From a virus: a DNA stretch of 64,000 nucleotides. The stretch spans positions 1 through 64,000 of IMG/VR virus record IMGVR_UViG_3300037488_001841. The stretch is one strand, 5' to 3'. Under the pieces are notes generated by a model, which ran no database searches, was not told the DNA's origin, and saw nothing but the letters and a program-made list of their open reading frames with translations. Below, piece after piece: positions 41,801 through 54,738 of this stretch. The first letter of the stretch is position 1. Each line of letters starts with the position of its first letter. Made by a program: the position numbers and the translations under genes.

Positions 41801-41910
41801 CCACTAATCAAACCATAACAATTTATAATAATAATTGTTTACCGATAAATAAAACCCAAAATTTTGAAATAAATGTGGGTATAAACTTTGATATACTATG
41901 TAATCCGTGA
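38893..41910 (+). CDS. Baseplate wedge protein (gp7 / P2 gpI-like)
   Basis: IPSQLLKNLAQTLGW ... LFKSKGTRKSIEILLRMVG. Confidence 0.7.
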   Translation: MAVNNYKCPPQPASGQGTFSDNLVGLQLVDGGGLTQANFEFTTNITEKQNRTFSIGSFSDPISLDSLNINSIEESKKLIADNFRVYPNFDLSQVTNFTMFGSLTKRMSTSVTNIINFFPAALDVQSTQPNFVTSITVQNASYDSVEDETYFEIPISVIRNPFGIDYTVNATRNLELREIPVSYLRNFTTQYLKYSLFFNDVEYPVSDFIPAQPTDTVLKIYVNGNPFLGVPSVSDNFIIRPKQLYVNKVFNENLDQVENFLLNRNIVPIYSAYFQVPKENEDGTYSYSQEVAIFPLVGTWNLDIVSPRFTNYLTKLNNISEYIDLYKTNLITRFLTADAIKEFDTADRKMEKVLQIYGRSFDETRKFITALANMNSVNYNIKNDIPSQLLKNLAQTLGWNINISPITNDQLLSSVFSDGSNAFTGLPQGQTPEELNYQYFRNLILNSAFLFKSKGTRKSIEILLRMVGAPEALTEFNEHVYVADQKINLRQFGIQYAQISGGTYSQELPVLDTNDLFSIMGVQYTGFTTTTITQDVSLTINDYPIDSFGYPSMPVPTDTYFFQIGGGWFESTPQHRMPAQADLTNSVFTGANPNYQTKLLPFNYGQEYLERYRSFPYMDLGFNLRKTVDNKKSWTDNEKYLRKNFDGNFNAYYGVSDDRLVINVKNVDLFMNPAQGLVYDVWTMSRRYNYPIPEEGLFYVDPTYCNPYPNIEYPNRGGIDWTVIVPKPKQKTFFEFAQTFWKNMINVRNRQFMTDGKTSGYPTLSSIYWKYLESEQAINVRNDNFNYQTMIDYVDGMGDYWIRLVEQMIPATTIWNTGVKYENSIFHRQKFVWRRQRGCEIIPVPCKPCKLITQIFSYDCPVQETVVGLYPWDTNPSITSFGALLGSSLTTYGNANNVNINNDCLLNTLESDWYIDIRIDGTPILIYEFFNGVGYSNPALSAPTANDWLNGLYDALVGLLDYGLDYIIDTTNQTITIYNNNCLPINKTQNFEINVGINFDILCNP

Positions 41911-44900
41911 GTTGTGGACAAATACTATATAACCTTTATATAACCGGCGATTGTACTAATACAAACGTTGGGGAAATTTACGTTGAAATAACGGGAGGTA
42001 CGTCTCCGTATACTGTTTATGAGGTTACATCAACAGGATTATTACCAACATCGGCGGCAACAACCACATATTATTATAGTGGTCTTTCTGCTGATACCTA
42101 TGTTTTGGCGATACAAGATTCTTGTATTTCTGGAGTGACTACCGAATATCTTAATATACCGATATCTTCGGGAACTTCAATAAGTGTTGAATCCTCAACA
42201 AATACAATATGTGGTGTTGATAATGGTGAAATTACTTTTGGGTTTACTCCTTTTTATGGTTATGGTGAAGGTCTATTATACGAAACAACAAATGGTTATA
42301 TAACCAGTGGATCAACAGGAACCAGCGGGTTAACATTTTCAAATTTATCAGGGGGTACTTATTATATTATTGGTGATAATGGAGCTGGTTGTACAGGATC
42401 AAGTGCTAGTGTTATTATTTTAACCTCAACAACATTAGATTATGGTTTTTATGTTGTTGATGATGCTAGTTGTAATGTGGCAAGTGGGTCAGGTAAAATA
42501 TTTGTGACAGGTCAAACAGGTATTGGACCATATACTTACATTTGGAGTAATGGTCAAACAGGGTCTACCGCAACAGGGTTAACAATAGGGTTTTACGACG
42601 TAACCGTAACCGATTCAACGGGATGTTCTGCAACTAGTGGGACATCGGTTAATAATGTACCACCAATTGGAATTGCATCATTTACCACAACGGGAAGTAC
42701 TTGTTTTAATAGTGATGGGGCGGTTGAAGTAACGGTAACTGGTGGTACGGCTCCGTTTTTTTTCTCAGGATCCAACGGGGATACAATAATAACGTTTGGT
42801 AATTCATACACGTTTGAAAATTTACCTTCAGGTACATTAACGGTAACAGTTAAAGATGCTGGTTTGTGTAGTGATACCCAATCGGTATCGTTAATAACTC
42901 CTAATGGATTTGCGGTATCTTCAATATCTTCAACTAATTCAATTTGTGGAAGTAATGGGTCAATTAATATTTTAGTTAATACGGGGTCTCCAACGGGAAC
43001 ATTTACGTATACTATATTGGATTCTTCGGGAAATACTGTTAACACAATTACGGTAGGTACTAATGCGACATTTAATAATTTACCTTCAGATACATATACA
43101 ATATTAATTGATAATAATTCGGGTTGTGTTTATACAGGATCAACAACTATTACAAATGTTAATTTATTTACAATAACTGCGGTAACAACTAATACAACTT
43201 GTGGGTTAAATAATGGGTCTATTCAGATCTTAACTACCACGGGAGGAACTTTACCTTATAGTTATCAAATAACTGGATATGCGGTTTCACCTATTAATAG
43301 TTATAATAACTTACCTTCAGGATTTTATACGGTTACTGTTACTGATGCAAATGGGTGTTCTCAGGTGACTACAACATATGTTGGGACATCAAGTTCGGTA
43401 TTCTGTAATTTATATACAATACAACCGGTTAATGGTAATGATGGTGAAATAACCGCATTTGTTAGTAGTGGTACTCCTCCTTTTACGTATAATTGGAGTC
43501 CAAATGTTAATTCCCAAACTGGTGATACTGTTACAAATTTAAGTGCGGGAACATATACATTACAAGTTGTGGATGATCTTGGATGTGTCACAACTAAAAG
43601 TGTTATCTTACAGGGGACTATTCTTTTAGGTGATTATCAAGTTTATAATATTAGCGATACTAATTTTGTTGATAGTGGAGTTGATGGTAGAAGGGGAATA
43701 GGTCAAATGTATAATGAAGGATTTTTTGATCTAACTGATAATGATACAAATTGTATTGTTAATAGTGGTCAATTTATAATAGAAACAATTGTTAATGGTG
43801 AGGTTAAACAAAATTTATTTTATACCTCAACAGGAATATACGATTACCCTACAGATACTGAATGGACTAATATTGTTAAAAGTACTTTGTTAAGTTATCC
43901 TGATATTGGTGAGGTTGATATTGATATTACTAAAAATAAAATGACAATTGTTAATGATTGTAAAGATATTAACAAAAGTTGTGTTCAAACAAAATTTAAC
44001 ACATTAGCAGATGCTAAAGTGATAGTTAATTTAATAATTAATTATGATATTTCTTGTGTTCAATGTGATCTACCGGTAATTACTCCTACCCCGACGCCAA
44101 CTAACACTGTGACACCAACAAACACACCAACTAACACTGTGACACCAACAAACACACCAACAAATACATTAACACCAACAAACACATTAACACCAGGGTT
44201 ATCACCAACAAGTACTCCGACAATGACAATGACTAACACGGTTACATCAACTCCGACTATAACACCTACGAATACAAATACCGCAACTCCGACTATAACA
44301 CCTACAAATACAATTACGCCAACAAATACAACAACGCCAACAAATACCAAAACTCCAACCTCAACCGCAAGTAATACTCCAACGCCAACAAATACAATTA
44401 CGCCAACAAATACAATTACGACAACAAATACTGAAACGCCAACACAAACACCAACTAATACCATAACACCTACAAACACCGAAACACCAACACAAACACC
44501 AACAAATACAAATACACCAACAAATACGGAAACTCCAACCAATACGCCAACGACAACAAACACCGAGACGCCTACAAATACACCAACAAATACAATGACA
44601 TCTACCCCAGCTGCGACCCCAAATAATAGTCCAACTGCTACTTCAATCCCAACAACAACTCCAACCCCAACAAACACTGAAACACCTACAAATACGCCAA
44701 CAAATACCATAACTCCAACTAACACTGAAACGCCAACAACAACTCCAACACCTACAAATACGCCAACAAATACTATAACACCAACTAACACTGAAACGCC
44801 AACACAAACACCAACACCTACTGTAACTCCAACTAACACTATAACTCCAACAAACACCATAACACCAACAAACACTGAAACACCTACAAATACGCCAACA

Positions 44901-45512
44901 AATACTCCAACTCCAACAAGAACTCCTACACCAACAACAGATTATATTTTTGCAAATGCGGATCCTTGTTGTGGAGGACCAACACAAGTGATGTATTTAC
45001 CAAGTGTTTACCAAAACCTTTCAATCTTATATATTGTGGGAGCAACAAATGGACAATGTTATACGATTGGTGGACCAACAACTGGCCCGGCAAATATAAC
45101 TTGGGATGGTAATCTACCATATGGTGAAGATGATTGTAACGCTTGTCCATACTTATGTCTTACACCAACACCAACAAATACCATAACTCCAACAAACACT
45201 GAAACACCTACAAATACGCCAACAAATACCATAACTCCAACTAACACTGAAACACCAACTAATACACCAACACCAACTCAAACTCCACCAACTCCTGTGA
45301 GTTGTAAACAAGGATCTATCCCTGAATTTACACCATATAGTTTCTATGATTGTTGTGGTATTCTACAAACAGGAACCACTAACGGAACAACGGCATTTGA
45401 TTGCTATGATTCAAATCAACCATACTCAGGTATCTCAGGTGGAAGTGATTGTGCGTCACCACCTTCATGTACCGTAACACCTACACCAACGAATACTCCA
45501 ACCCCAAAATAA
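41907..45512 (+). CDS. SprB-repeat protein with mucin-like Thr-Pro-Asn tract and Cys-rich C-terminal modules (putative tail fibre/appendage)
   Basis: About 7 repeats of C...DG.I.V..TGGT.PYTY.WS....L..G.Y.VTV.DA.GC; about 280 aa of TPTNT repeats. Confidence 0.8.
44080..45290 (+). repeat. Coding minisatellite ([13 protein letters not shown]); includes a 30-bp tandem duplication at 44097-44160 and a 65-bp perfect direct repeat at 44667-44731 / 45189-45253
   Basis: Direct inspection of acaccaacaaat-type units. Confidence 0.9.
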
Positions 45513-45611
45513 TAAGAGAATTGGGTAACACTATATAACAAGAACTAAACCATACTTAATTCCAAAGTGGATAAAATACACTTTTAAAAAATAATAAGTA
45601 TCTTTTAAGTT

Positions 45612-46592
45612 ATGAAAGATATAATTTTTGTTACGGCACAACCTGATGTTCCTTATTTTCATTGGCAGGTTAAATTATATACACATAATTTCATTGAGAT
45701 GGGTATTGAACCATGTCAAATTCACGTCATTTTTGGATTAACAAATGGTCAAAAAGAACCTTCTAAAGGTGCTTTAGAATTATGTGATTATGGTTTTAAT
45801 GTTCATTTTTATTATGATGATAGAATTGGTAAAAATTACATACCAAGTATAAAACCATATTTAATATCAAGATGGTTATATGAACATCCACAATATGGTA
45901 AAGTATTTTTCTTACACGATGCTGATATAATTTTTAGGGAATTACCTGATTTTGATAAATTAATGTCTGATAACGTTTGTTATTTATCTGATACAATTGG
46001 TTATATTGGATACAATTACATTATGGATTGTTGTAAAAGATATGAGAATGTTCACCCAAAATCAGAAAAAGGTCAATTGTTAAGTGAAATGGCTGGTATT
46101 GTTGGATTAGATGTTGATACAATTAAAAATAATCAAGAAAGTTCGGGAGGTGGTCAATATCTCTTAAAAAATATGACATACGATCTTTGGGAAAAAATAT
46201 ACTTAGATTGTGTTCCTCTTTATAAACAAATGCATGATTACCATAAAAGACATCCAATAAGTCCTGGTGAAATACAATTTTGGACTGCGGAAATGTGGTC
46301 TTTATTGTGGAATTTATGGTTACATAATTATGAGACCAAAGTGGTTGATGATTTAAATTTTTCTTGGGCTACAGATGATATTAAAATATATGAAGAAAGA
46401 CCAATATTACACATGGCTGGTGTTACAGATAATTTAAGAGGAACTAAATTTTATAAGGGGGAATATATAAATGTTGATCCAATAGAAAAGTTGAAAGAGA
46501 ACCCATTACATTTTGATTACATTGAAAAGAATAGTACGACAATAAAATATATTGAAGTAATGAAATCATTTATTCAAAAAACAATAAATTGA
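45612..46592 (+). CDS. GT-A fold glycosyltransferase, resembling peptidyl-serine galactosyltransferase / hydroxyproline arabinosyltransferase (GT96/GT95-like)
   Basis: YFHWQ, YIPSIKP..I..WL, FFLHDADIIFR (DxD), GGGQYLL, WTAEMWS, ILHMAG. Confidence 0.7.
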   Translation: MKDIIFVTAQPDVPYFHWQVKLYTHNFIEMGIEPCQIHVIFGLTNGQKEPSKGALELCDYGFNVHFYYDDRIGKNYIPSIKPYLISRWLYEHPQYGKVFFLHDADIIFRELPDFDKLMSDNVCYLSDTIGYIGYNYIMDCCKRYENVHPKSEKGQLLSEMAGIVGLDVDTIKNNQESSGGGQYLLKNMTYDLWEKIYLDCVPLYKQMHDYHKRHPISPGEIQFWTAEMWSLLWNLWLHNYETKVVDDLNFSWATDDIKIYEERPILHMAGVTDNLRGTKFYKGEYINVDPIEKLKENPLHFDYIEKNSTTIKYIEVMKSFIQKTIN

Positions 46593-46620
46593 TTATTTAT
46601 ATATTAAACAAATAACTTAA

Positions 46621-48681
46621 ATGGCGATAATATATAAGGTAGAAAATATAAACCCGGTTATATACAATAACTTCACATTTGTTGATGGTAATGGGGTTAG
46701 TAAATCAATGGATTTATTACCAAATGTATCATATTACATCAATGGTAATAGTGTCATTTCGCCCGCGTTATTTATTACGGTACTTAATTTAGGTAAAGAA
46801 ACTATTAGATACTGTTTCCAAAGTTGTTGTAATAATGACATTATTGATTTTGATGGGAGTAATCAATTCCCATTTAGTACTTACCAAGTTGGCGATACCA
46901 TATATTTTGATCAAGCAATCACATCTTCAAATCCTAATAACTATAAAACAGGTTGTTATGAGTTAATAAGTTTCGGACCCACTAATACACACTCATGTTC
47001 AATAGCCGGATCTGAAAATGTTAGTGTTGTTTCTTTTGAAAGTAACCCATATGATAGTTGTAATAACTGTATTGTTGATCACAGTTGTTGTGTGAGTTAT
47101 ATAGTTACAAACCAATCATCAACGAATGTTAAAACATCAATTGAATTTACTCCTTGTTGTGATGAAACTAAAACATCTCCATATTTCATACCATTCCAAA
47201 CAGGTATATTAGTATGTAGTTCAACAGGTATAAAAGTTTTGGGTGGTGACGTTCAAGTTATAAATAATGGGAATTGTCCTGATTGTCCTGTTATCACAAC
47301 AACAACAACGGGACCTGTAGTAACAACCACAACAACATTTGCTCCTCCAATACCACCAATTGAGCCTCTTAATGAATGTTCTGTAATAACTATTTTCCCT
47401 CTTGGGGTTGAATGTTTTACAGTTGACCCAACAACAAGTGGATCTTTCGATGGTGCGGTCACTTTAGGTATAACGGGAGGGACACCACCATATGAGGTTG
47501 TTTGGGAAAATGGATCATTATCTCAATCGTTAAGTAATATTGGAGTTGGGGAATACAATTCAATTGTTACAGATTATTATGGTGATTTTACTGCATATAC
47601 CACTTGTGTATTAACCGCTGAAACACCGGTTACAACAACTACAACAACTCAAGAACCATTACCATCTTATGAAGATATATGTATAACAATTATTAGAGGT
47701 AACAAACTATTTTCTTACGCTGAATATTACCAATTTGATTTTAATAATTATATCGGAGATTATCCTACTTGGACTAATACAATAGATGGGTTAGATATTG
47801 TGTGGGGCGAAACTAACAATCAATGGGAGGTTTCTGGATGGACTATAGGTCAAATTATTAATACTAATCCGGCAATACCACCACTAAATGGGTGGGATTC
47901 TTTAGGGCCTACATTACCTGATAGAGTATTATCAATAACTGCGGTTTCAGGACTATGTCAATTATTAAGTATGCCTAACTTAACGATACGTGTTAATCAA
48001 CCTGAGTGTGGTTGTGACGGAAGTTTAATCTTAACTCCTTTTGGAGGTACTCCACCTTACACTTTTTCTATTGATGGTGGTACGACTTATGCTGCAACAA
48101 CAATATATAATGATTTATGTCAAGGAACTTATATTGTTTATGTGAAAGATTCTTCAGGATTTACATATAGTGAAACTGTTACTTTATCGGCACCTACATC
48201 ATCGGTTAATTATATTTTAACTATGGCATATTTGGGTGGTAATACATTTGGTGTTAGTATATCTCCTTCATTATCTATTGGGACCACAGTTACTTTTGAT
48301 GTTATACATACTAACACATTTATTGTTGGACCTTTACAGTCAAGTGCAACTTATAATAATACGGTTACATTAAACGTTAATGGGGTTCCGGTTTCTTATA
48401 CTCCACCACCTGTACTAACCCAACTTTCACCGGTACCTCAACAATTCCCTTGTCAAGGATCTTTCCAATACACAACAACAAAACAGTTTACGTGGGTTGG
48501 TTTAAGTATGACGTTTGGTACAATAATAAATGGTTCGTTTACTAATACAATATCGCCTGTTTTACCAACACCACAATGTTTTGTTGCAACTACATCATAT
48601 TATATTTATATAAATAATGTAAGAATAAATAATGATTGTGATACGATAAGAGTTGTTAACCCTAAACCACCAAAAATTTAA
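46621..48681 (+). CDS. Cys-rich SprB-repeat protein with poly-Thr linkers
   Basis: FDGAVTLGITGGTPPY, CDGSL.L..FGGTPPYTFSIDGG...DLCQGTY.V.VKDS; TTTTT tracts. Confidence 0.75.
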   Translation: MAIIYKVENINPVIYNNFTFVDGNGVSKSMDLLPNVSYYINGNSVISPALFITVLNLGKETIRYCFQSCCNNDIIDFDGSNQFPFSTYQVGDTIYFDQAITSSNPNNYKTGCYELISFGPTNTHSCSIAGSENVSVVSFESNPYDSCNNCIVDHSCCVSYIVTNQSSTNVKTSIEFTPCCDETKTSPYFIPFQTGILVCSSTGIKVLGGDVQVINNGNCPDCPVITTTTTGPVVTTTTTFAPPIPPIEPLNECSVITIFPLGVECFTVDPTTSGSFDGAVTLGITGGTPPYEVVWENGSLSQSLSNIGVGEYNSIVTDYYGDFTAYTTCVLTAETPVTTTTTTQEPLPSYEDICITIIRGNKLFSYAEYYQFDFNNYIGDYPTWTNTIDGLDIVWGETNNQWEVSGWTIGQIINTNPAIPPLNGWDSLGPTLPDRVLSITAVSGLCQLLSMPNLTIRVNQPECGCDGSLILTPFGGTPPYTFSIDGGTTYAATTIYNDLCQGTYIVYVKDSSGFTYSETVTLSAPTSSVNYILTMAYLGGNTFGVSISPSLSIGTTVTFDVIHTNTFIVGPLQSSATYNNTVTLNVNGVPVSYTPPPVLTQLSPVPQQFPCQGSFQYTTTKQFTWVGLSMTFGTIINGSFTNTISPVLPTPQCFVATTSYYIYINNVRINNDCDTIRVVNPKPPKI

Positions 48682-48703
48682 TAATTAACTATTTATATAC
48701 AAA

Positions 48704-51238
48704 ATGGCATATATAATAAAAAATACATCAGGACTTGTTAATACTAGAATGACAGATACAGGTAGATTGAAGATGTCTCAGGGCAATTTCAATATATCAT
48801 ATTTCCAAATTGGTGATAGTGAAGTTTCTTACGATAAAGTTTCTAGTACTTATAATCAAGCAAATAGTTTTGTATTAATACCACCATTTGGTAGTCAAAA
48901 TAGTGATGGGATACCAAAATCAAACAAACAAAATGTTAAATATCCATATTATGTTGACGGTAATGCAGGAAACACATATGGTATTCCATATATGGATTCT
49001 ACGGTTGAAAATGTTTTTAACAGAGCGCCATTGAGGGGGTTTTTTACCGGTAATACCACGGCAAGTACAATAACATGGAGTGCATTAACAAGTAGTAATT
49101 ATGTTAAAACATCTAACTATTTGGTTGATCCTTTTTCGTTAAACGGGACTAATGAAATAACATTAATTTATTCTGGTTGTAATACCTCATCATTTGGTTC
49201 ATTTGATGTGGGTGATTTTATTACAATTTATTTTGATGGGTTAGGTTGTCATAATTGTACTTGTACTAATTTACCAACTCCAACACCTACGGCATCACAA
49301 GGATCAACCCCGACACCTACTCCAACACCTTCGGCAACTAGTGGAACTATTAATTGTGCTAGTCCAACTCCAACCCCAACACCTTCAAAAACACAATGTT
49401 TAACCCCAACACCAAGTAGACAATGTCCGGCACCGCCAGATCCTGTTTGTTTAATGGATATGTATAGTTGTTATCCAATATTAACATATAGAATTATTGC
49501 GATTTGTGATAATAAAATAACTTTAGATAGAACTACTCCAAACTTTGGGTTAATTAGTAATGAATGTTGTTTTAGGGCTTTAGTGTATCCTAAAACTATG
49601 ACAGAATTATATGATAGTATAACACCAAGTCCACATTGGGATAATGATGTTATTAACTATGAAACAATATGTGATGTTGATCAGTTTGATGTTAAAATTT
49701 GGAATATGAATATTCCTTGGACTGAAAGTCCTGCGGGTCTAAGATCAACTCAATTTGAGGACTATACTTATTTTGGATCAGTTAATTATATAGGAAGTAA
49801 GGAGTATTTTGGTTATAATTCAAATTCAGGACAAACTTTCTATGTTAATTCAACTTTAAGTGCTGAAACTACTGACACATATTACTACAACTCATTTGAT
49901 GAGGTGGTAAAAGTTGAACCTGAAGAACAAAAAGCGATTGCGATAATACATTATACAAATCAAACGATTGACTTCTTCTATGGTGAGAAATTTGCGTTAG
50001 AACCGTATGATCCATCTAACCCTGACGATACAACAGGGCAAGCAAGAAACTTTAAATTACATATTCCTTGGATTATGTGGCATAAAAATCCTGAATGTTG
50101 TTTTGGAGATACATTTTGGGTAGACCCTCCGGGATTTGATGGTAAGGGATTATTTGAGGTTCATTTTATGGAATCTAATCTTAATAATGACATGAATAAT
50201 CCTGGTTTAAGATATTACCATTTATGGGACACACACCCTAATTCTAATGGATTACCAAGTAGAATAGGTAAAGTTTTCCCTGATAGTCAAACTATTATTA
50301 TTGATGATGAAGAAATTGTTGCGGCAATGTCATATAAGGCAAATCGAAATTGGACATTACCGGCACCTCAAGTATCATTAATAACTCCAAACATATGTGA
50401 TACAACCTCATCTACAATTAATGGTATATTAACAGGTAATAATGAAACTATGTATATTACATATCGTTTAACTAACGAATATGGATTTACTAATTCATTA
50501 CATTCAAATTATTATATAAAAATTACAGGTAATAATAATGATTGTTTCCCTGATACGTCTAAGAACGTTGCAATAAGATTCGGGGGAGAGTTTGGTTGTT
50601 TGGTGGTACCTGGTTATAACCCAACGACTACAACAACAACTTATAGTCCAATTACTACTACTACAACAACATATATTCCTGTAACAACTACAACAACAAT
50701 ATGTCCTACCTGTGACATACCAAATGGATTTTACGCCACAAAATTTGAGGTTTTAGCTCAGAAGGTACCAACAGGAACCAGACCTAACCCATCTAATTGG
50801 AGATTAATTGATTTTACAAATAGTATAAGTGCGGATACAATTAATGGTTATATAACTGAGGATGCTTTAACAGGTACTACATTTATAGTGACGGAAACAT
50901 TATATAATTCGGCACCATATTATAATCTAAATGATTATATTGATTTAACACCACTTGGTAATACAAGTCCGAAGTTAAATTTTGGGGATGAGTATTATTT
51001 TTATGGTGGAATTGAAACAGATATTCAGGCAACAATATATGAAATGATGTATAAAGTTAACTTAAATTATACAGAATTCCAAAATACTTCAAACCCAACA
51101 TGGACTCCTGGCACAAAATCTTACATTACCGAAATTGCATTATTGGACGACAAGAAAGATGTTTTGGTGGTTTCAAAACTACAATCACCGGTGTTAAGAC
51201 AAGGGATACAACAGTTTTTAGTTAAGTTTGATTTATAG
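48704..51238 (+). CDS. Putative tail/baseplate fibre-attachment protein with TP and poly-T inserts
   Basis: N-terminal TDTGR..M..G.F.I.YF..GDSEV.Y; C-terminal YITEIALLD....L.VSKL..PV; TPTPTP and TTTTT tracts. Confidence 0.65.
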   Translation: MAYIIKNTSGLVNTRMTDTGRLKMSQGNFNISYFQIGDSEVSYDKVSSTYNQANSFVLIPPFGSQNSDGIPKSNKQNVKYPYYVDGNAGNTYGIPYMDSTVENVFNRAPLRGFFTGNTTASTITWSALTSSNYVKTSNYLVDPFSLNGTNEITLIYSGCNTSSFGSFDVGDFITIYFDGLGCHNCTCTNLPTPTPTASQGSTPTPTPTPSATSGTINCASPTPTPTPSKTQCLTPTPSRQCPAPPDPVCLMDMYSCYPILTYRIIAICDNKITLDRTTPNFGLISNECCFRALVYPKTMTELYDSITPSPHWDNDVINYETICDVDQFDVKIWNMNIPWTESPAGLRSTQFEDYTYFGSVNYIGSKEYFGYNSNSGQTFYVNSTLSAETTDTYYYNSFDEVVKVEPEEQKAIAIIHYTNQTIDFFYGEKFALEPYDPSNPDDTTGQARNFKLHIPWIMWHKNPECCFGDTFWVDPPGFDGKGLFEVHFMESNLNNDMNNPGLRYYHLWDTHPNSNGLPSRIGKVFPDSQTIIIDDEEIVAAMSYKANRNWTLPAPQVSLITPNICDTTSSTINGILTGNNETMYITYRLTNEYGFTNSLHSNYYIKITGNNNDCFPDTSKNVAIRFGGEFGCLVVPGYNPTTTTTTYSPITTTTTTYIPVTTTTTICPTCDIPNGFYATKFEVLAQKVPTGTRPNPSNWRLIDFTNSISADTINGYITEDALTGTTFIVTETLYNSAPYYNLNDYIDLTPLGNTSPKLNFGDEYYFYGGIETDIQATIYEMMYKVNLNYTEFQNTSNPTWTPGTKSYITEIALLDDKKDVLVVSKLQSPVLRQGIQQFLVKFDL

Positions 51239-51292
51239 CAAAAACTTTAGTTTTACATTCGTCCAATTATATTATAATAAAATAATCATTAT

Positions 51293-51901
51293 ATGAGAAC
51301 ACCAATTAAAAACTCACCTAAAGTTTTAGGATTAGATATTTCCACTAAAACCATAGGTTGGGCTCTTTTTGACATAAAAACTCAAGAACTATTAGAATTA
51401 ACTCACGTATCCCCACGACCAAAATCAAAAGATACTGAAGAAAATAAAATGTTAGAATTAATACTTAAATCTGAAATTTTTAAGACAAAATTAGAGGACT
51501 ATAAAAAATTAGGTATTGTTAGTGTTATTATTGAAGAACCACTACTTAATTCAAATAATGTTTATACCATTCAAACCTTATTAAGATTTAACACATTAAT
51601 ATGTAAAACGATTTATGATATTATTGGGATCGTCCCCGAATTCATATCCACATATAATTCAAGAAAGTTTGCGTTCCCTGAATTGGTTAAAGAAAATGAT
51701 AAGAAGAAACACGTACTATTTGGGGGGTTACCAAAAGACATTGATAAGAAAATGGTTATATGGGAACTTGTTGCAAAAAGAGAACCACAGATCCAATGGC
51801 AGTATACTAAAAATCAAACACTTAAGAAAGAAAACTTTGATCAAACCGATGCTTATACCTGTGTATTAGGTTATATGAGAAGTAAAGGAATTTGGGCTTA
51901 A
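51293..51901 (+). CDS. RuvC-like Holliday junction resolvase
   Basis: VLGLDISTKTIGWA, IIEEP, DQTDAY (RNase H-fold acidic residues). Confidence 0.8.
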   Translation: MRTPIKNSPKVLGLDISTKTIGWALFDIKTQELLELTHVSPRPKSKDTEENKMLELILKSEIFKTKLEDYKKLGIVSVIIEEPLLNSNNVYTIQTLLRFNTLICKTIYDIIGIVPEFISTYNSRKFAFPELVKENDKKKHVLFGGLPKDIDKKMVIWELVAKREPQIQWQYTKNQTLKKENFDQTDAYTCVLGYMRSKGIWA

Positions 51902-51926
51902 TATCGTTTAATATACCGATAATTTG

Positions 51927-51957
51927 AAATATCGTCTTTATGGACGATATTTTTTTT
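51927..51957. terminator. Bidirectional terminator between convergent genes
   Basis: AAATATCGTC-tttatg-GACGATATTT plus T-run. Confidence 0.75.
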
Positions 51958-53543
51958 TATGGACAAAGTATAACATCAATTATTGTACCTGTTGAATCTA
52001 CTTGTACTGCATAAACTACAACTGCTGGTGCTAATACAGATGATATTGCAATCCATTGATTATTTTGACCTGTTATTGGTAAATTTGATAAAGCATCAAT
52101 TAATGGAATTCCGACAACAGGTAATGAAGTAGATGTAATCCATCCATTACTTGCAAATGATACATAATTACTACAAGCCAATATATCCGTAGACCACCAA
52201 TTTGCTCCACTAGTCCAATTATAACTTGTAATTTGGTTTGTGGATGATGGTGTTGGTGTGTGTGTTGGAGTAGGTGTTGGACTTGGGAAACAAGGGACTC
52301 CCGTTTCACTAACATCTATTGATCCAAGTAACGAATATGGTGTTGATAATGAATTAACAATTATACTCTGATATGCGTTTAATGTTTGAATTGTTGATAA
52401 CCCTGATAAATCAGTGAAAACATATGTTTGATTGTTAATAGGGCTATTATTAGTTAATAAATATTGAACACAAAGAGTATTGTTACAACATACTCCCACA
52501 TTGGTTATTATTGCGGTTCCTATTGAGATTGTTGGCACTGTGGTAGAACAAATGTGAATTACACGATCTCCCCAAGATTGTGCACCTACAGATGATGGTC
52601 TTAAATCAACCAATCTATTATCCGAACAATCATTAAATGTTATAACTGTGTTTTGAGCGGTACCATCAAAATTCGATATAGTGTAAGCATTACATGAACA
52701 CGGTTTTGTTGGTGTTGGGGTCATTGTTGGGGTCATTGTTGGAGTAGAAGTAATAGGAATACAATTTAAGCAACTACCATCACTTGACGGACCATATTCT
52801 GTGGTTATAACAACCTTATCCCCACCACTTATATTATCAACTATTGTTTGGAATATAAAACAAGATGATTTACCATTTATTGTTCCACCATAAACATCTC
52901 CAATAACTAATAAGTTTCCAATGGAGTCAAATAGAGTTTGTGTTGTGTAGTACTCAATACCGGTAAAACAATCCTCAAATTTCTTACTTGTTGCACAAAC
53001 AATAAATCCATCAACGTTATTAAATTTTGCCACCCCATCATAATTACATGGTCTATCAATTGGTGATGAAGGGGTTGGAGTATTAGTAGGTGTTGGAGTT
53101 GGGGTTGGTGAGTATGTATTTGCCGTTACGTTTAATGAAACACCACCACATACATTGGTTGGGGTTGGTGTCATAGTTGGAGTTGGTGTTATAGTTGAGG
53201 TAGGGGTAGGTGTTGGTGTCGGTGGAACATCACAATCAAACTCTGCGTTAAAATCAATATCACAAGGTACTGGTGGTGGTGGAGTTGGTGGACAAGGCCC
53301 ATTAGATAAAATTGATGTGTAGAAATCGGGACAACTACTTGATGTTGGGGTTGGACCAAATAAGAGACAAGGGTCTCCTAAATTAGCCGCTAAACACCAT
53401 CTATTTTCTGTTATTGAATAAAAAACGTAGTAACCATTTGTTGCTCCAGTATAATAATCTAAACTATAGTATTGGCCATCAATGGTATATGTGTCATCAT
53501 ATATTCCCGCATTACTTATACAAATATCTGTACTACAACTCAT
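51957..53543 (-). CDS. Cys-rich, Thr-Pro repeat putative virion appendage protein
   Basis: Cys-rich modules separated by TPTPTP linkers, the same style as the 41907 and 46621 ORFs. Confidence 0.75.
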   Translation of the reverse strand: MSCSTDICISNAGIYDDTYTIDGQYYSLDYYTGATNGYYVFYSITENRWCLAANLGDPCLLFGPTPTSSSCPDFYTSILSNGPCPPTPPPPVPCDIDFNAEFDCDVPPTPTPTPTSTITPTPTMTPTPTNVCGGVSLNVTANTYSPTPTPTPTNTPTPSSPIDRPCNYDGVAKFNNVDGFIVCATSKKFEDCFTGIEYYTTQTLFDSIGNLLVIGDVYGGTINGKSSCFIFQTIVDNISGGDKVVITTEYGPSSDGSCLNCIPITSTPTMTPTMTPTPTKPCSCNAYTISNFDGTAQNTVITFNDCSDNRLVDLRPSSVGAQSWGDRVIHICSTTVPTISIGTAIITNVGVCCNNTLCVQYLLTNNSPINNQTYVFTDLSGLSTIQTLNAYQSIIVNSLSTPYSLLGSIDVSETGVPCFPSPTPTPTHTPTPSSTNQITSYNWTSGANWWSTDILACSNYVSFASNGWITSTSLPVVGIPLIDALSNLPITGQNNQWIAISSVLAPAVVVYAVQVDSTGTIIDVILCP

Positions 53544-53544
53544 A

Positions 53545-53766
53545 TTATATATTTAAAGTATCTGTTACGATACAATCATTATTATCCACCACTTTTACAA
53601 CAAATTGAGTTAAACTTCCATATACTACCGGAATATTAAAACTATATGGTAAATCAACCGTATTAATGGTTGAAACATAAATACAAGTTGTTATAGGAGA
53701 ATCACACACATAAACATCAAATGGTTGTGCTCCGGTAACATTGTTAATTGTTATATTTGTTGGCAT
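53545..53766 (-). CDS. Small stand-alone SprB/Ig-like protein
   Basis: MPTNITINNVTGAQPFDVYVC...VKVVDNNDC; ATG lies 3 nt after minus-strand TATTTATA. Confidence 0.65.
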   Translation of the reverse strand: MPTNITINNVTGAQPFDVYVCDSPITTCIYVSTINTVDLPYSFNIPVVYGSLTQFVVKVVDNNDCIVTDTLNI

Positions 53767-53838
53767 ATCTATAAATATAGAACTTATCAAAAACTTGTGA
53801 AGTTGATATGTTCTTTTATTTTGTCTATATTACTAAAA

Positions 53839-54738
53839 ATGGATGAAAGCGAAGCAATAGTTGAATTACTTGAGGATCTTTTAGGGGATCATGGATTACA
53901 TTATCCAAATAGGGGACAAATATCCTTTAATTGTCCTGTGTGCGATGAGGGTAGAAATAAACATAACTTAGAAATTAACTATATAAATAATGTTTATAAA
54001 TGTTGGTCGTGTGGTGATGTTGATGGAACTCACGGTTCTTTAGGTAAATTGTTTGATAAGTATGGTAACAGAAAATTAAAAAAATTATTCAATGTATTAA
54101 AACCTGAAACCGTACTACCAAAAAAACGAAGAACAAAAAAATTAACTTTACCTGAAGGATTTACCTTATTTAAAGAATCAAGTCCGGTATATCCTGTGAG
54201 AAGACAGGCGTATAATTACTTAATGAGTAGGGGTATAACCGATGAAATTATTGAAAAGTATAATATTGGTTTTTGTGATCGTGGGGATCATTTAGGTAGA
54301 ATTGTTGTTCCATCGTATAATAGTAATGGAGATTTAAATTATTACATTGCAAGAAGTTGGGATCCAAAAAGTAGATTTAAATATAAAAACCCTGAGGCAG
54401 AAAAAGATAAAATCATCTTCAACGAAAGATTAATTGATTGGGATAAAGACATTTATTTAGTGGAAGGGGTTTTTGATGGGTTCTTCTTAGATAATTCAAT
54501 CCCGATGTTAGGTAAACATATGTCGGAAGTTTTATTTGAGAAAATTTACACAAAGTCAAAAGGTGATATAATTATAACTCTTGATGGTGATGCTTGGGAT
54601 AATGCAGTTAAACTGTATCGTGAGTTAAATGGTGGTGAATTATATGATAGAATAAAAATTGTTCATTTACCATTAGATAAGGATGTTTGTGATTTAAGAG
54701 GAAAAATTGAAGATTTTTTTGTAAAAATTAGGGATTAA
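53839..54738 (+). CDS. DNA primase (Zn finger + TOPRIM; gp61/DnaG-like)
   Basis: CPVC...CWSC; YL.SRGI; RIVVP; KYKNP; LVEGVFD; LDGDA; KD..D; start moved to ATG 53839. Confidence 0.9.
   Translation: MDESEAIVELLEDLLGDHGLHYPNRGQISFNCPVCDEGRNKHNLEINYINNVYKCWSCGDVDGTHGSLGKLFDKYGNRKLKKLFNVLKPETVLPKKRRTKKLTLPEGFTLFKESSPVYPVRRQAYNYLMSRGITDEIIEKYNIGFCDRGDHLGRIVVPSYNSNGDLNYYIARSWDPKSRFKYKNPEAEKDKIIFNERLIDWDKDIYLVEGVFDGFFLDNSIPMLGKHMSEVLFEKIYTKSKGDIIITLDGDAWDNAVKLYRELNGGELYDRIKIVHLPLDKDVCDLRGKIEDFFVKIRD

Follow-up and report, generated by a model that had tools for sequence, protein, structure and literature searches.

Why would a bacteriophage place a glycosyltransferase gene among its fibre genes, between proteins that carry long threonine-rich tracts? 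This question is raised by the IMG/VR viral record IMGVR_UViG_3300037488_001841, a contig of 75.5 kilobases (kb) with a CheckV completeness of 26%. We analysed its first 64 kb (positions 1 to 64,000), henceforth referred to as the window. On the plus strand at 45612..46592, among fibre-like genes and downstream of a baseplate wedge gene, the window encodes a 326-amino-acid (aa) soluble glycosyltransferase of the GT-A type that belongs to the protein family phrog_4417. From its fold, motifs and context, we predict that it is a threonine (Thr) O-glycosyltransferase for virion proteins. Four open reading frames (ORFs) around it carry tracts rich in Thr, or in Thr and proline (Pro). The original prediction, made from the sequence of the window without database searches, was that a phage enzyme modifies the phage's own Thr-rich virion proteins. 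We estimate a probability of about 70% that the enzyme O-glycosylates Thr-rich tracts of virion proteins. The evidence is the modelled fold, the conserved catalytic-type residues, the location of the gene in a virion module and its joint gain and loss with the tracts.

The tail-tube protein of Enterococcus phage phiFL1A ends in a poly-Thr tail, and its homologs provide a natural experiment. We compared 27 IMG/VR loci that encode such homologs (65–100% identity). In 12 loci the enzyme is encoded immediately downstream, and all 12 have poly-Thr tails on the tail-tube and capsid proteins. The remaining 15 have no enzyme gene within 6 kb, and none of these 15 has a Thr-rich tract, across 164 kb. 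In a maximum-likelihood tree of the tail-tube core, the presence of the enzyme requires four changes under the most parsimonious reconstruction, at least two of which are forced by well-supported branches. The poly-Thr tail changes together with the enzyme at each change. This comparison is the strongest single evidence that the tract is the substrate of the enzyme.

Poly-Thr tracts also accompany the enzyme in distant carriers, whose enzymes share 32–39% identity with that of the window. The gene directly follows the major tail protein gene and precedes the chaperone and tape-measure genes in phiFL1A, Clostridium phage phiCTP1 and Staphylococcus phage SA2; in Enterococcus phage VPE25 and Lacticaseibacillus phage R3.3 it directly follows a putative capsid gene. 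In these five phages the tail-tube protein, the capsid protein or both end in a poly-Thr tail of roughly 6–25 residues that contains scattered Ser, Pro, Lys or Arg. Five matches to a run of six Thr (T6) were detected in phiFL1A, exactly at the capsid and tail-tube tails. Chryseobacterium phage MA9V-3, which also carries the enzyme, has 15 T6 matches at five places. There, internal poly-Thr/Ser linkers occur in the product of the gene just upstream of the enzyme and in that of a gene two positions beyond it, but in none of the 13 other neighbouring proteins. In the Herelleviridae phage Iacchus, half of a 129-aa protein encoded just upstream of the gene consists of Thr/Ser repeats. Neither T6 nor (TP)3 occurs in the 834 kb of three relatives of the window phage that were identified by their baseplate protein and lack the enzyme (Flavobacterium phage immuto, LR756508 and Microcystis phage Mel-JY01). 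In SA2 (locus L086, 6111–6924), the major tail protein ends in T8 and is overlapped by an 88-aa ORF in another frame, more than half of which is Thr/Ser; this ORF may give rise to a frameshift-extended, more heavily tagged variant of the tail-tube protein.

We then considered a wider sample of 113 loci, several of them overlapping or near-identical, which were retrieved with queries from three other subfamilies. A Thr-rich ORF lies within 8 kb of the enzyme gene in 88 of the 113 loci, usually as the adjacent gene on the same strand, 4–43 bp away. A query with the family member P0148 found no viral locus. In 80 relatives from the window's own clade (57–87% identity), tract-bearing ORFs flank the enzyme gene wherever the available sequence reaches far enough. 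The co-occurrence at the heart of the original prediction was thus upheld: the enzyme tracks Thr-rich tracts in every lineage examined, and it is encoded inside morphogenesis modules.

The enzyme matches the hidden Markov model (HMM) of phrog_4417, a family labelled 'unknown function', with an E-value of 3.4e-69 (residues 6–319 on profile positions 3–290 of 293). The family comprises 1330 relatives in a collection clustered at 90% and forms 825 clusters at 50% identity. Using tblastn (E ≤ 1e-5), we detected homologs in 77 phage records, from phages of Lactobacillus, Enterococcus, Staphylococcus, Lactococcus, Clostridium, Lacticaseibacillus, Arcanobacterium and Chryseobacterium. The enzyme has no match to a Pfam family even at E ≤ 10 (Glyco_transf_8, PF01501, and PF23452 included), an NCBIfam search assigned no family, and sequence and profile searches of the PDB sequences returned nothing meaningful. 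Pfam scans of 139 family members likewise gave no GT8 and no DUF7164 match. The literature that we searched, which covers few subscription journals, describes neither the phrog_4417 family nor poly-Thr tags as sites of glycosylation in phages.

Some family members carry a second glycosyltransferase domain behind the first (Glyco_transf_7C, GT2, GT6, GT25, GT29 or a Skp1-type GlcNAc transferase), which fits an initiating enzyme followed by optional extension. Others are fused to a discoidin domain or to radical-SAM/SPASM domains. The fusions with radical-SAM and SPASM domains (P0272–P0274) are 658–660 aa long and occur on contigs of up to 299 kb; such domains usually modify peptides or sugars. 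Loci L205–L208, two of which are from contigs of giant-virus metagenome-assembled genomes (MAGs), encode homologs of about 430 aa with 37–38% identity to P0172 and have no Thr-rich ORF within 8 kb. Either their acceptor is encoded elsewhere or this branch has another substrate.

We built an AlphaFold2 (AF2) model of the enzyme on 47 diverse family members and used the same 47 sequences to assess conservation. The model, with a predicted local distance difference test score (pLDDT) of 97.2 and a predicted template modelling score (pTM) of 0.93, is a single Rossmann-like alpha/beta/alpha domain that matches solved GT-A enzymes. Foldseek searches against the PDB gave a probability of 1.0 for WbbM, glycogenin, UGGT, XXYLT1 and ABO transferases. 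The nearest solved folds are retaining GT-A enzymes of families GT8, GT24 and GT77, at template modelling (TM) scores of only 0.40–0.46 and a sequence identity of about 10%. By its modelled fold the enzyme is a GT-A glycosyltransferase, probably a GT8-like and retaining one that by sequence belongs to no named family. Its model is not that of an enzyme that modifies DNA or lipopolysaccharide (LPS), in agreement with the original prediction.

The DxD motif (D103-A-D105; 45918..45926, plus strand) is the predicted Mn2+/nucleotide-sugar site. D105 is invariant among the 47 sequences and D103 is conserved in at least 90% of them. The motif lies behind a hydrophobic strand, in HDADIIF at residues 102–108 (context FFLHDADIIF), and the GT-A fold suggests that it binds the metal. 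His267 (46410..46412, plus strand) is invariant, like G270 and K282, and is probably the third metal ligand; the surrounding H-x-x-G...K pattern resembles the HxxGxxKPW motif of GT8. The invariance of D105, H267, G270 and K282, together with the near-invariance of D103, fits a DxD...His metal site. Other motifs are PYFHWQ (14–19), NYIPSIKPYLISRWL (75–89), DADIIFRE and FWTAEMW (223–229). The ORFs of the original prediction were found where it had placed them, and the enzyme motifs that it quoted (YFHWQ, Y.PS.KP..I..WL, DAD.I.R and W.AEMW) are all present and coincide with the conserved family columns W18, Y76, D103/D105, Q222, W224, M228 and W229. The chain opens with strand 1 (residues 5–11), forms one globular domain from there onwards and contains neither a hydrophobic anchor nor a membrane segment, from which we conclude that the enzyme is cytoplasmic.

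We propose that the protein is a soluble, cytoplasmic, metal-dependent and probably retaining GT-A enzyme that acts late in infection. It would move a sugar from a host nucleotide-sugar to Thr hydroxyls in the low-complexity, Thr-rich tracts of phage structural proteins. In the jumbo T4-like phage of the window, these tracts would be the inter-domain linkers of the four fibre/adhesin-like proteins encoded around the enzyme, and in small siphophages the poly-Thr tags in which the major capsid and tail-tube proteins end. Tract and enzyme would thus form a portable two-part module. The family enzyme is the only recognisable glycosyltransferase in phiFL1A and phiCTP1, which have no GT2, GT1 or epimerase match, and it must therefore use host nucleotide-sugars. 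The complete jumbo relatives have 7–8 GT2 matches as well as GT1-type genes, some near other TP-tract clusters, and these further glycosyltransferases may extend the first sugar. The product would be a mucin-like glycan coat on the fibres or, in the siphophages, on the whole particle. The acceptor atom, the donor sugar and the linkage are what we infer from these observations, as is the benefit, which could be shielding, stiffness, protease resistance or adhesion.

In both complete jumbo relatives, (TP)n clusters lie beside GT2/GT1-type clusters (271–282 kb with 287–289.5 kb in G001; 17–28 kb with 7.7–9.3 kb and 306.3 kb with 302.5–303.3 kb in G002), and one of these GT1 domains lies inside a 1456-aa ORF. 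These clusters may form a second glycosylation island.

A broader proposal is that phrog_4417 is part of a widespread, hitherto undescribed tag-plus-enzyme system. In it, this one soluble enzyme family, acting in the cytoplasm of the bacterium, would recognise poly-Thr or Thr/Pro tags encoded in the genome and O-glycosylate any virion protein that bears one, be it of the capsid, the tail tube or the fibres. Besides phages of Bacillota and Bacteroidota, jumbo phages of the freshwater type would use the system, as may giant-virus MAGs. We regard this proposal as probable, albeit a little less so than the activity itself.

Several points weigh against these conclusions. A glycan on any of these proteins is a prediction only. 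In the wider sample, 25 of the 113 loci have no tract within 8 kb, and these include one subclade, the giant-virus MAG loci and some short contigs; the pairing of enzyme and tract is dominant, not universal. Complete relatives of the window phage also have TP tracts 70–90 kb or more from the enzyme, and inherited synteny alone could account for adjacency within the jumbo clade. In many bacterial proteins, unmodified Thr/Pro linkers are common as spacers. Furthermore, the evidence that crosses phyla concerns near-pure Thr runs, and the TPTNT and (TP)n tracts that dominate the window may not be acceptors. On a narrower reading, the enzyme would modify only near-homopolymeric Thr runs, such as the T5–T6 linkers of the ORFs that start at 46621 and 48704, and the TPTNT and (TP)n tracts of the ORFs at 41907 and 51957 would be unmodified spacers. 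The tracts that track the enzyme outside this clade are indeed all poly-Thr(/Ser) with scattered Pro, Lys or Ala, and (TP)3 is absent from phiFL1A and MA9V-3, which both carry the enzyme. However, (TP)3 is also missing from the three relatives that lack the enzyme, whereas it is abundant in the jumbo genomes that have it (the codon pattern occurs 6 times in this record and 28–30 times in the complete relatives, compared with 0 for a reversed control pattern). In addition, the TP tracts of the 844-aa protein encoded at 48704 are conserved in position, and the ORFs that adjoin the enzyme in this clade mostly bear TP-type tracts. We regard the narrower reading as unlikely, although the range of acceptors is the most serious reservation about our proposal.

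The enzyme could instead act on something other than a protein: a host envelope glycopolymer (teichoic acid, LPS or capsule), or a lipid-linked or small-molecule acceptor. The tracts would then be plain linkers and their co-occurrence with the enzyme indirect, for example through a joint adsorption module. It is well known that glycosyltransferases encoded by prophages alter host surfaces, the LPS/O-antigen enzymes LgtC and WbbM are among the nearest solved folds, and the gene of Lactobacillus phage Iacchus adjoins a glycerophosphodiester phosphodiesterase gene. Set against this are the 12 of 12 versus 0 of 15 coupling to tags that sit at the C-termini of capsid and tail-tube subunits, proteins that do not serve in adsorption, the position of the gene within late morphogenesis operons in lytic phages as well as temperate ones, and the absence of a membrane anchor, and we consider such a target improbable. 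A role in DNA modification, in which sugars are added to or extended on hydroxymethylated phage bases to evade restriction, is suggested by the many phage glycosyltransferases that act in this way and by the T4-like nature of the window phage. It is a further point against protein glycosylation that GT8-like phage enzymes can also extend DNA-linked glycans: two GT-A enzymes that resemble GT8 and A64R of the chlorovirus PBCV-1 add secondary sugars to the glycans of 5-hydroxymethylcytosine (bioRxiv 10.1101/2023.12.21.572611). However, the gene studied here lies among structural genes and not beside methyltransferase, TET-type or thymidylate-synthase-type genes. Members of the family occur in temperate siphophages of 36–39 kb between the tail-tube and chaperone genes, and DNA modification gives no reason for the coupling to poly-Thr tags. 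We found no Tet_JBP match in the record itself, the two jumbo relatives, phiFL1A or MA9V-3, a weak negative, as control genomes were also unmatched. Taken together, a role in DNA modification appears very improbable, and glycosylation of Thr-rich virion proteins is the reading that we retain.

The four tract proteins of the window together contain about 570 tract residues, of which about 250 are Thr. Thr/Pro or poly-Thr tracts are confined to these four among the about 40 window ORFs of at least 150 aa. Their predicted role in the virion rests on gene context and one PHROG match. No type IX secretion system (T9SS) C-terminal domain or other NCBIfam model was detected on them (E ≤ 1), and their N-termini, judged by eye, are unlike signal peptides, as had been suggested from the sequence. 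The first candidate acceptor is a 1201-aa fibre/adhesin-like protein (41907..45512, plus strand) with N-terminal SprB-like immunoglobulin-type repeats and, further on, small Cys-rich modules that lie between five Thr/Pro(/Asn) tracts. It matches phrog_26672, 'virion structural protein' (E 1e-9). Three tracts (aa 721–763, 767–901 and 908–1014) are of the TPTNT type and cover about 285 aa, close to the 280 aa noted originally, and two further tracts span aa 1084–1133 and 1184–1201. The five tracts total 353 residues (169 Thr, 75 Pro and 44 Asn). The main TPTNT-type region (aa 721–1014; 44067..44948, plus strand) is encoded by degenerate tandem repeats of 18, 30, 48 and 66 nucleotides, whose ACN/CCN codons cause a sharp dip in GC skew (-0.38) at 44–46 kb. 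As read from the sequence, the TPTNT repeats form no N-x-S/T sequons for N-glycosylation. We rejected a 271-aa, Gly/Val-rich ORF on the minus strand (44060–44875) as a gene, as it is the antisense shadow of these codon repeats.

The second candidate acceptor is a 686-aa Cys-rich SprB-repeat protein (46621..48681, plus strand) with poly-Thr linkers at aa 225–247 and 331–349 (T5/T5 and T6). SprB repeats had been proposed for both proteins that flank the enzyme. Pfam supports them in the 686-aa protein (E 2.3e-8) and does not call them in the 1201-aa protein (E ≤ 0.01), whose N-terminal repeats nevertheless align to those of its neighbour (BLASTP E 9e-5). The tracts proposed for two further proteins, at 48704 and at 51957 on the minus strand, were found as described. 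One is a candidate acceptor of 844 aa that is conserved in the clade (48704..51238, plus strand), with (TP)n tracts at aa 185–232 and three T5–T6 runs at aa 635–670. The tract positions are kept in 30 orthologs, and T642–645, T661 and T664 are at least 90% conserved. AF2 predicts the tracts to be disordered in an overall poor model (mean pLDDT 49.5). The 844-aa protein has no match in the PDB sequence search or the phage tblastn search, and the PDB sequence search also gave no match for a 1005-aa protein. The other is a 528-aa Cys-rich candidate acceptor (51957..53543, minus strand) with four (TP)n linkers; most relatives have a minus-strand tract-bearing ORF at this position, a variable counterpart of 336–1750 aa.

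The gene at 51957–53543 is the sole sizeable minus-strand gene in its region, is bracketed by genes for a RuvC-like resolvase (51293–51901) and a DNA primase (53725–54738), and varies greatly in length among relatives. Host-range cassettes typically show this combination of features. At 44938–53543, the Thr/Pro linkers of the four fibre-like proteins alternate with small Cys-rich modules (2.4–4.7% Cys, compared with about 1% elsewhere in the window), which are probably disulfide- or metal-stabilised binding domains. Just past the window, at 64419–65552 of the record, lies a gene for a 377-aa predicted membrane protein that has a coiled-coil-like middle and, 17 residues before the C-terminus, a T6 run. 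Though no obvious fibre protein, it may be another acceptor.

The window encodes a T4-type tail tube, a baseplate hub, a gp6-like wedge, UvsX, a DnaB-type helicase, ribonucleotide reductase and a primase. Given this T4-type gene content and near-complete relatives of 290,887 bp (99% complete) and 318,164 bp (100% complete), we identify the source as a jumbo T4-like myovirus. By its wedge protein, the closest deposited phages are Flavobacterium phage immuto, a 484-kb uncultured phage and Microcystis phage Mel-JY01, at only 25–28% identity. The SprB repeats and the Chryseobacterium/Flavobacterium affinities hint at a host in the Bacteroidota. With 18 matches in the window compared with 15.9 expected, the T4 late-promoter consensus TATAAATA shows no enrichment, and the glycosyltransferase gene has no match upstream of it. 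Of the nine minus-strand matches, seven lie in short gaps between genes, directly upstream of plus-strand, mostly structural, genes (1191, 2735, 4638, 16626, 37942, 46594 and 48690). Read on the plus strand as TATTTATA, they may represent a promoter or leader motif of this phage group; TATTTATA is missing upstream of the glycosyltransferase gene.

To our knowledge, virion glycosylation has been shown by experiment only in mycobacteriophages. If our reading is true, it extends to a different, much larger enzyme family with a simple, recognisable acceptor tag, and to phages of enterococci, staphylococci, lactobacilli, clostridia and Bacteroidota as well as abundant environmental jumbo phages. 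Many phages, including gut and dairy phages and phage-therapy candidates, would then have glycan-coated particles, with possible effects on their stability, their adsorption to hosts, their binding to mucus and their immunogenicity. The C-terminal tails of capsid and tail-tube proteins that are unresolved in cryo-electron microscopy maps would also have to be read differently, and a PHROG now labelled 'unknown' would gain a function. As a compact, ready-made pair, enzyme and tag would give glyco-engineering an orthogonal means of O-glycosylation in the cytoplasm. Since several carriers are available as cultured phages, the prediction is directly testable.

We compared the proposed system with known glycosylation systems. 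Mucin-type O-glycosylation by animal GalNAc-transferases (GT27) is similar in that dense O-glycosylation of low-complexity Thr/Pro repeats yields extended, protease-resistant brushes, the effect that we propose by analogy only, as the enzyme family, the compartment (Golgi) and the organisms differ. The enzymes with which giant viruses glycosylate their capsids, such as PBCV-1 A64R, match the modelled fold less well than GT8 does, act in a eukaryotic host and have no Thr-rich tag. The glycans of PBCV-1 are N-linked to Asn. GT8-type enzymes and their neighbours (glycogenin, LgtC, the GT8 domain of WbbM, GlyE of the pneumococcal serine-rich-repeat protein pathway, UGGT of GT24 and the Skp1 alpha-galactosyltransferase AgtA of GT77) are the closest in structure, at the low identity and TM-scores given above, and Glyco_transf_8 finds no match.

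The original prediction had labelled the enzyme as plant-type, after the hydroxyproline O-arabinosyltransferase HPAT (GT95, PF23452) and the peptidyl-serine galactosyltransferase SGT1/SERGT1 (GT96). This label was not confirmed, given the lack of a PF23452 match at E ≤ 10 and the nearest solved folds, among which there is no solved GT95 or GT96 structure. The likeness to these enzymes, which are found in plants and algae, is conceptual: a peptide O-glycosyltransferase acts on Pro-rich, hydroxy-amino-acid-rich tracts of the extensin or mucin type. The plant enzymes are membrane-anchored, reside in the secretory pathway and act on hydroxyproline or Ser, whereas the window enzyme is soluble, has no membrane anchor and has Thr-rich partner tracts. 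Remote kinship with HPAT is nevertheless possible. One of the 139 family members matches PF23452 (E 1.3e-4), and in a protein language-model comparison 19 of the 30 nearest named Atlas clusters carry it (in the two clusters shown, 10% and 58% of the members do so). PF23452 has no match in the record itself, phiFL1A, phiCTP1, MA9V-3 or a 366-kb carrier; these are weak negatives, as control genomes were also unmatched.

The closest parallel is found in the mycobacteriophages Che8, Corndog and Myrna, whose glycosyltransferases decorate the phages' own capsid and tail-tube subunits, which alters recognition by antibodies (Freeman et al. 2023, Cell Host Microbe 31:1216, as cited and summarised in PMC12619734). 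According to that summary, the sites are C-terminal extensions of the capsid and tail-tube subunits. The poly-Thr-tagged proteins of Bacillota phages follow the same logic. Glycosylation is proven in mycobacteriophages, whereas it is predicted for phrog_4417 carriers. In both systems, a phage-encoded glycosyltransferase is linked with structural genes. Mycobacteriophages are absent from the 77 phage records matched by tblastn, so by that search their enzymes are of a different family. Unlike in mycobacteriophages, the acceptor proposed here is a recognisable Thr-rich tag, which in the window forms internal linkers of fibre-like proteins rather than C-terminal tails. Phage-encoded virion glycosylation is thus already known from mycobacteriophages, and what would be new is the predicted system of the phrog_4417 family and its Thr-rich tags.

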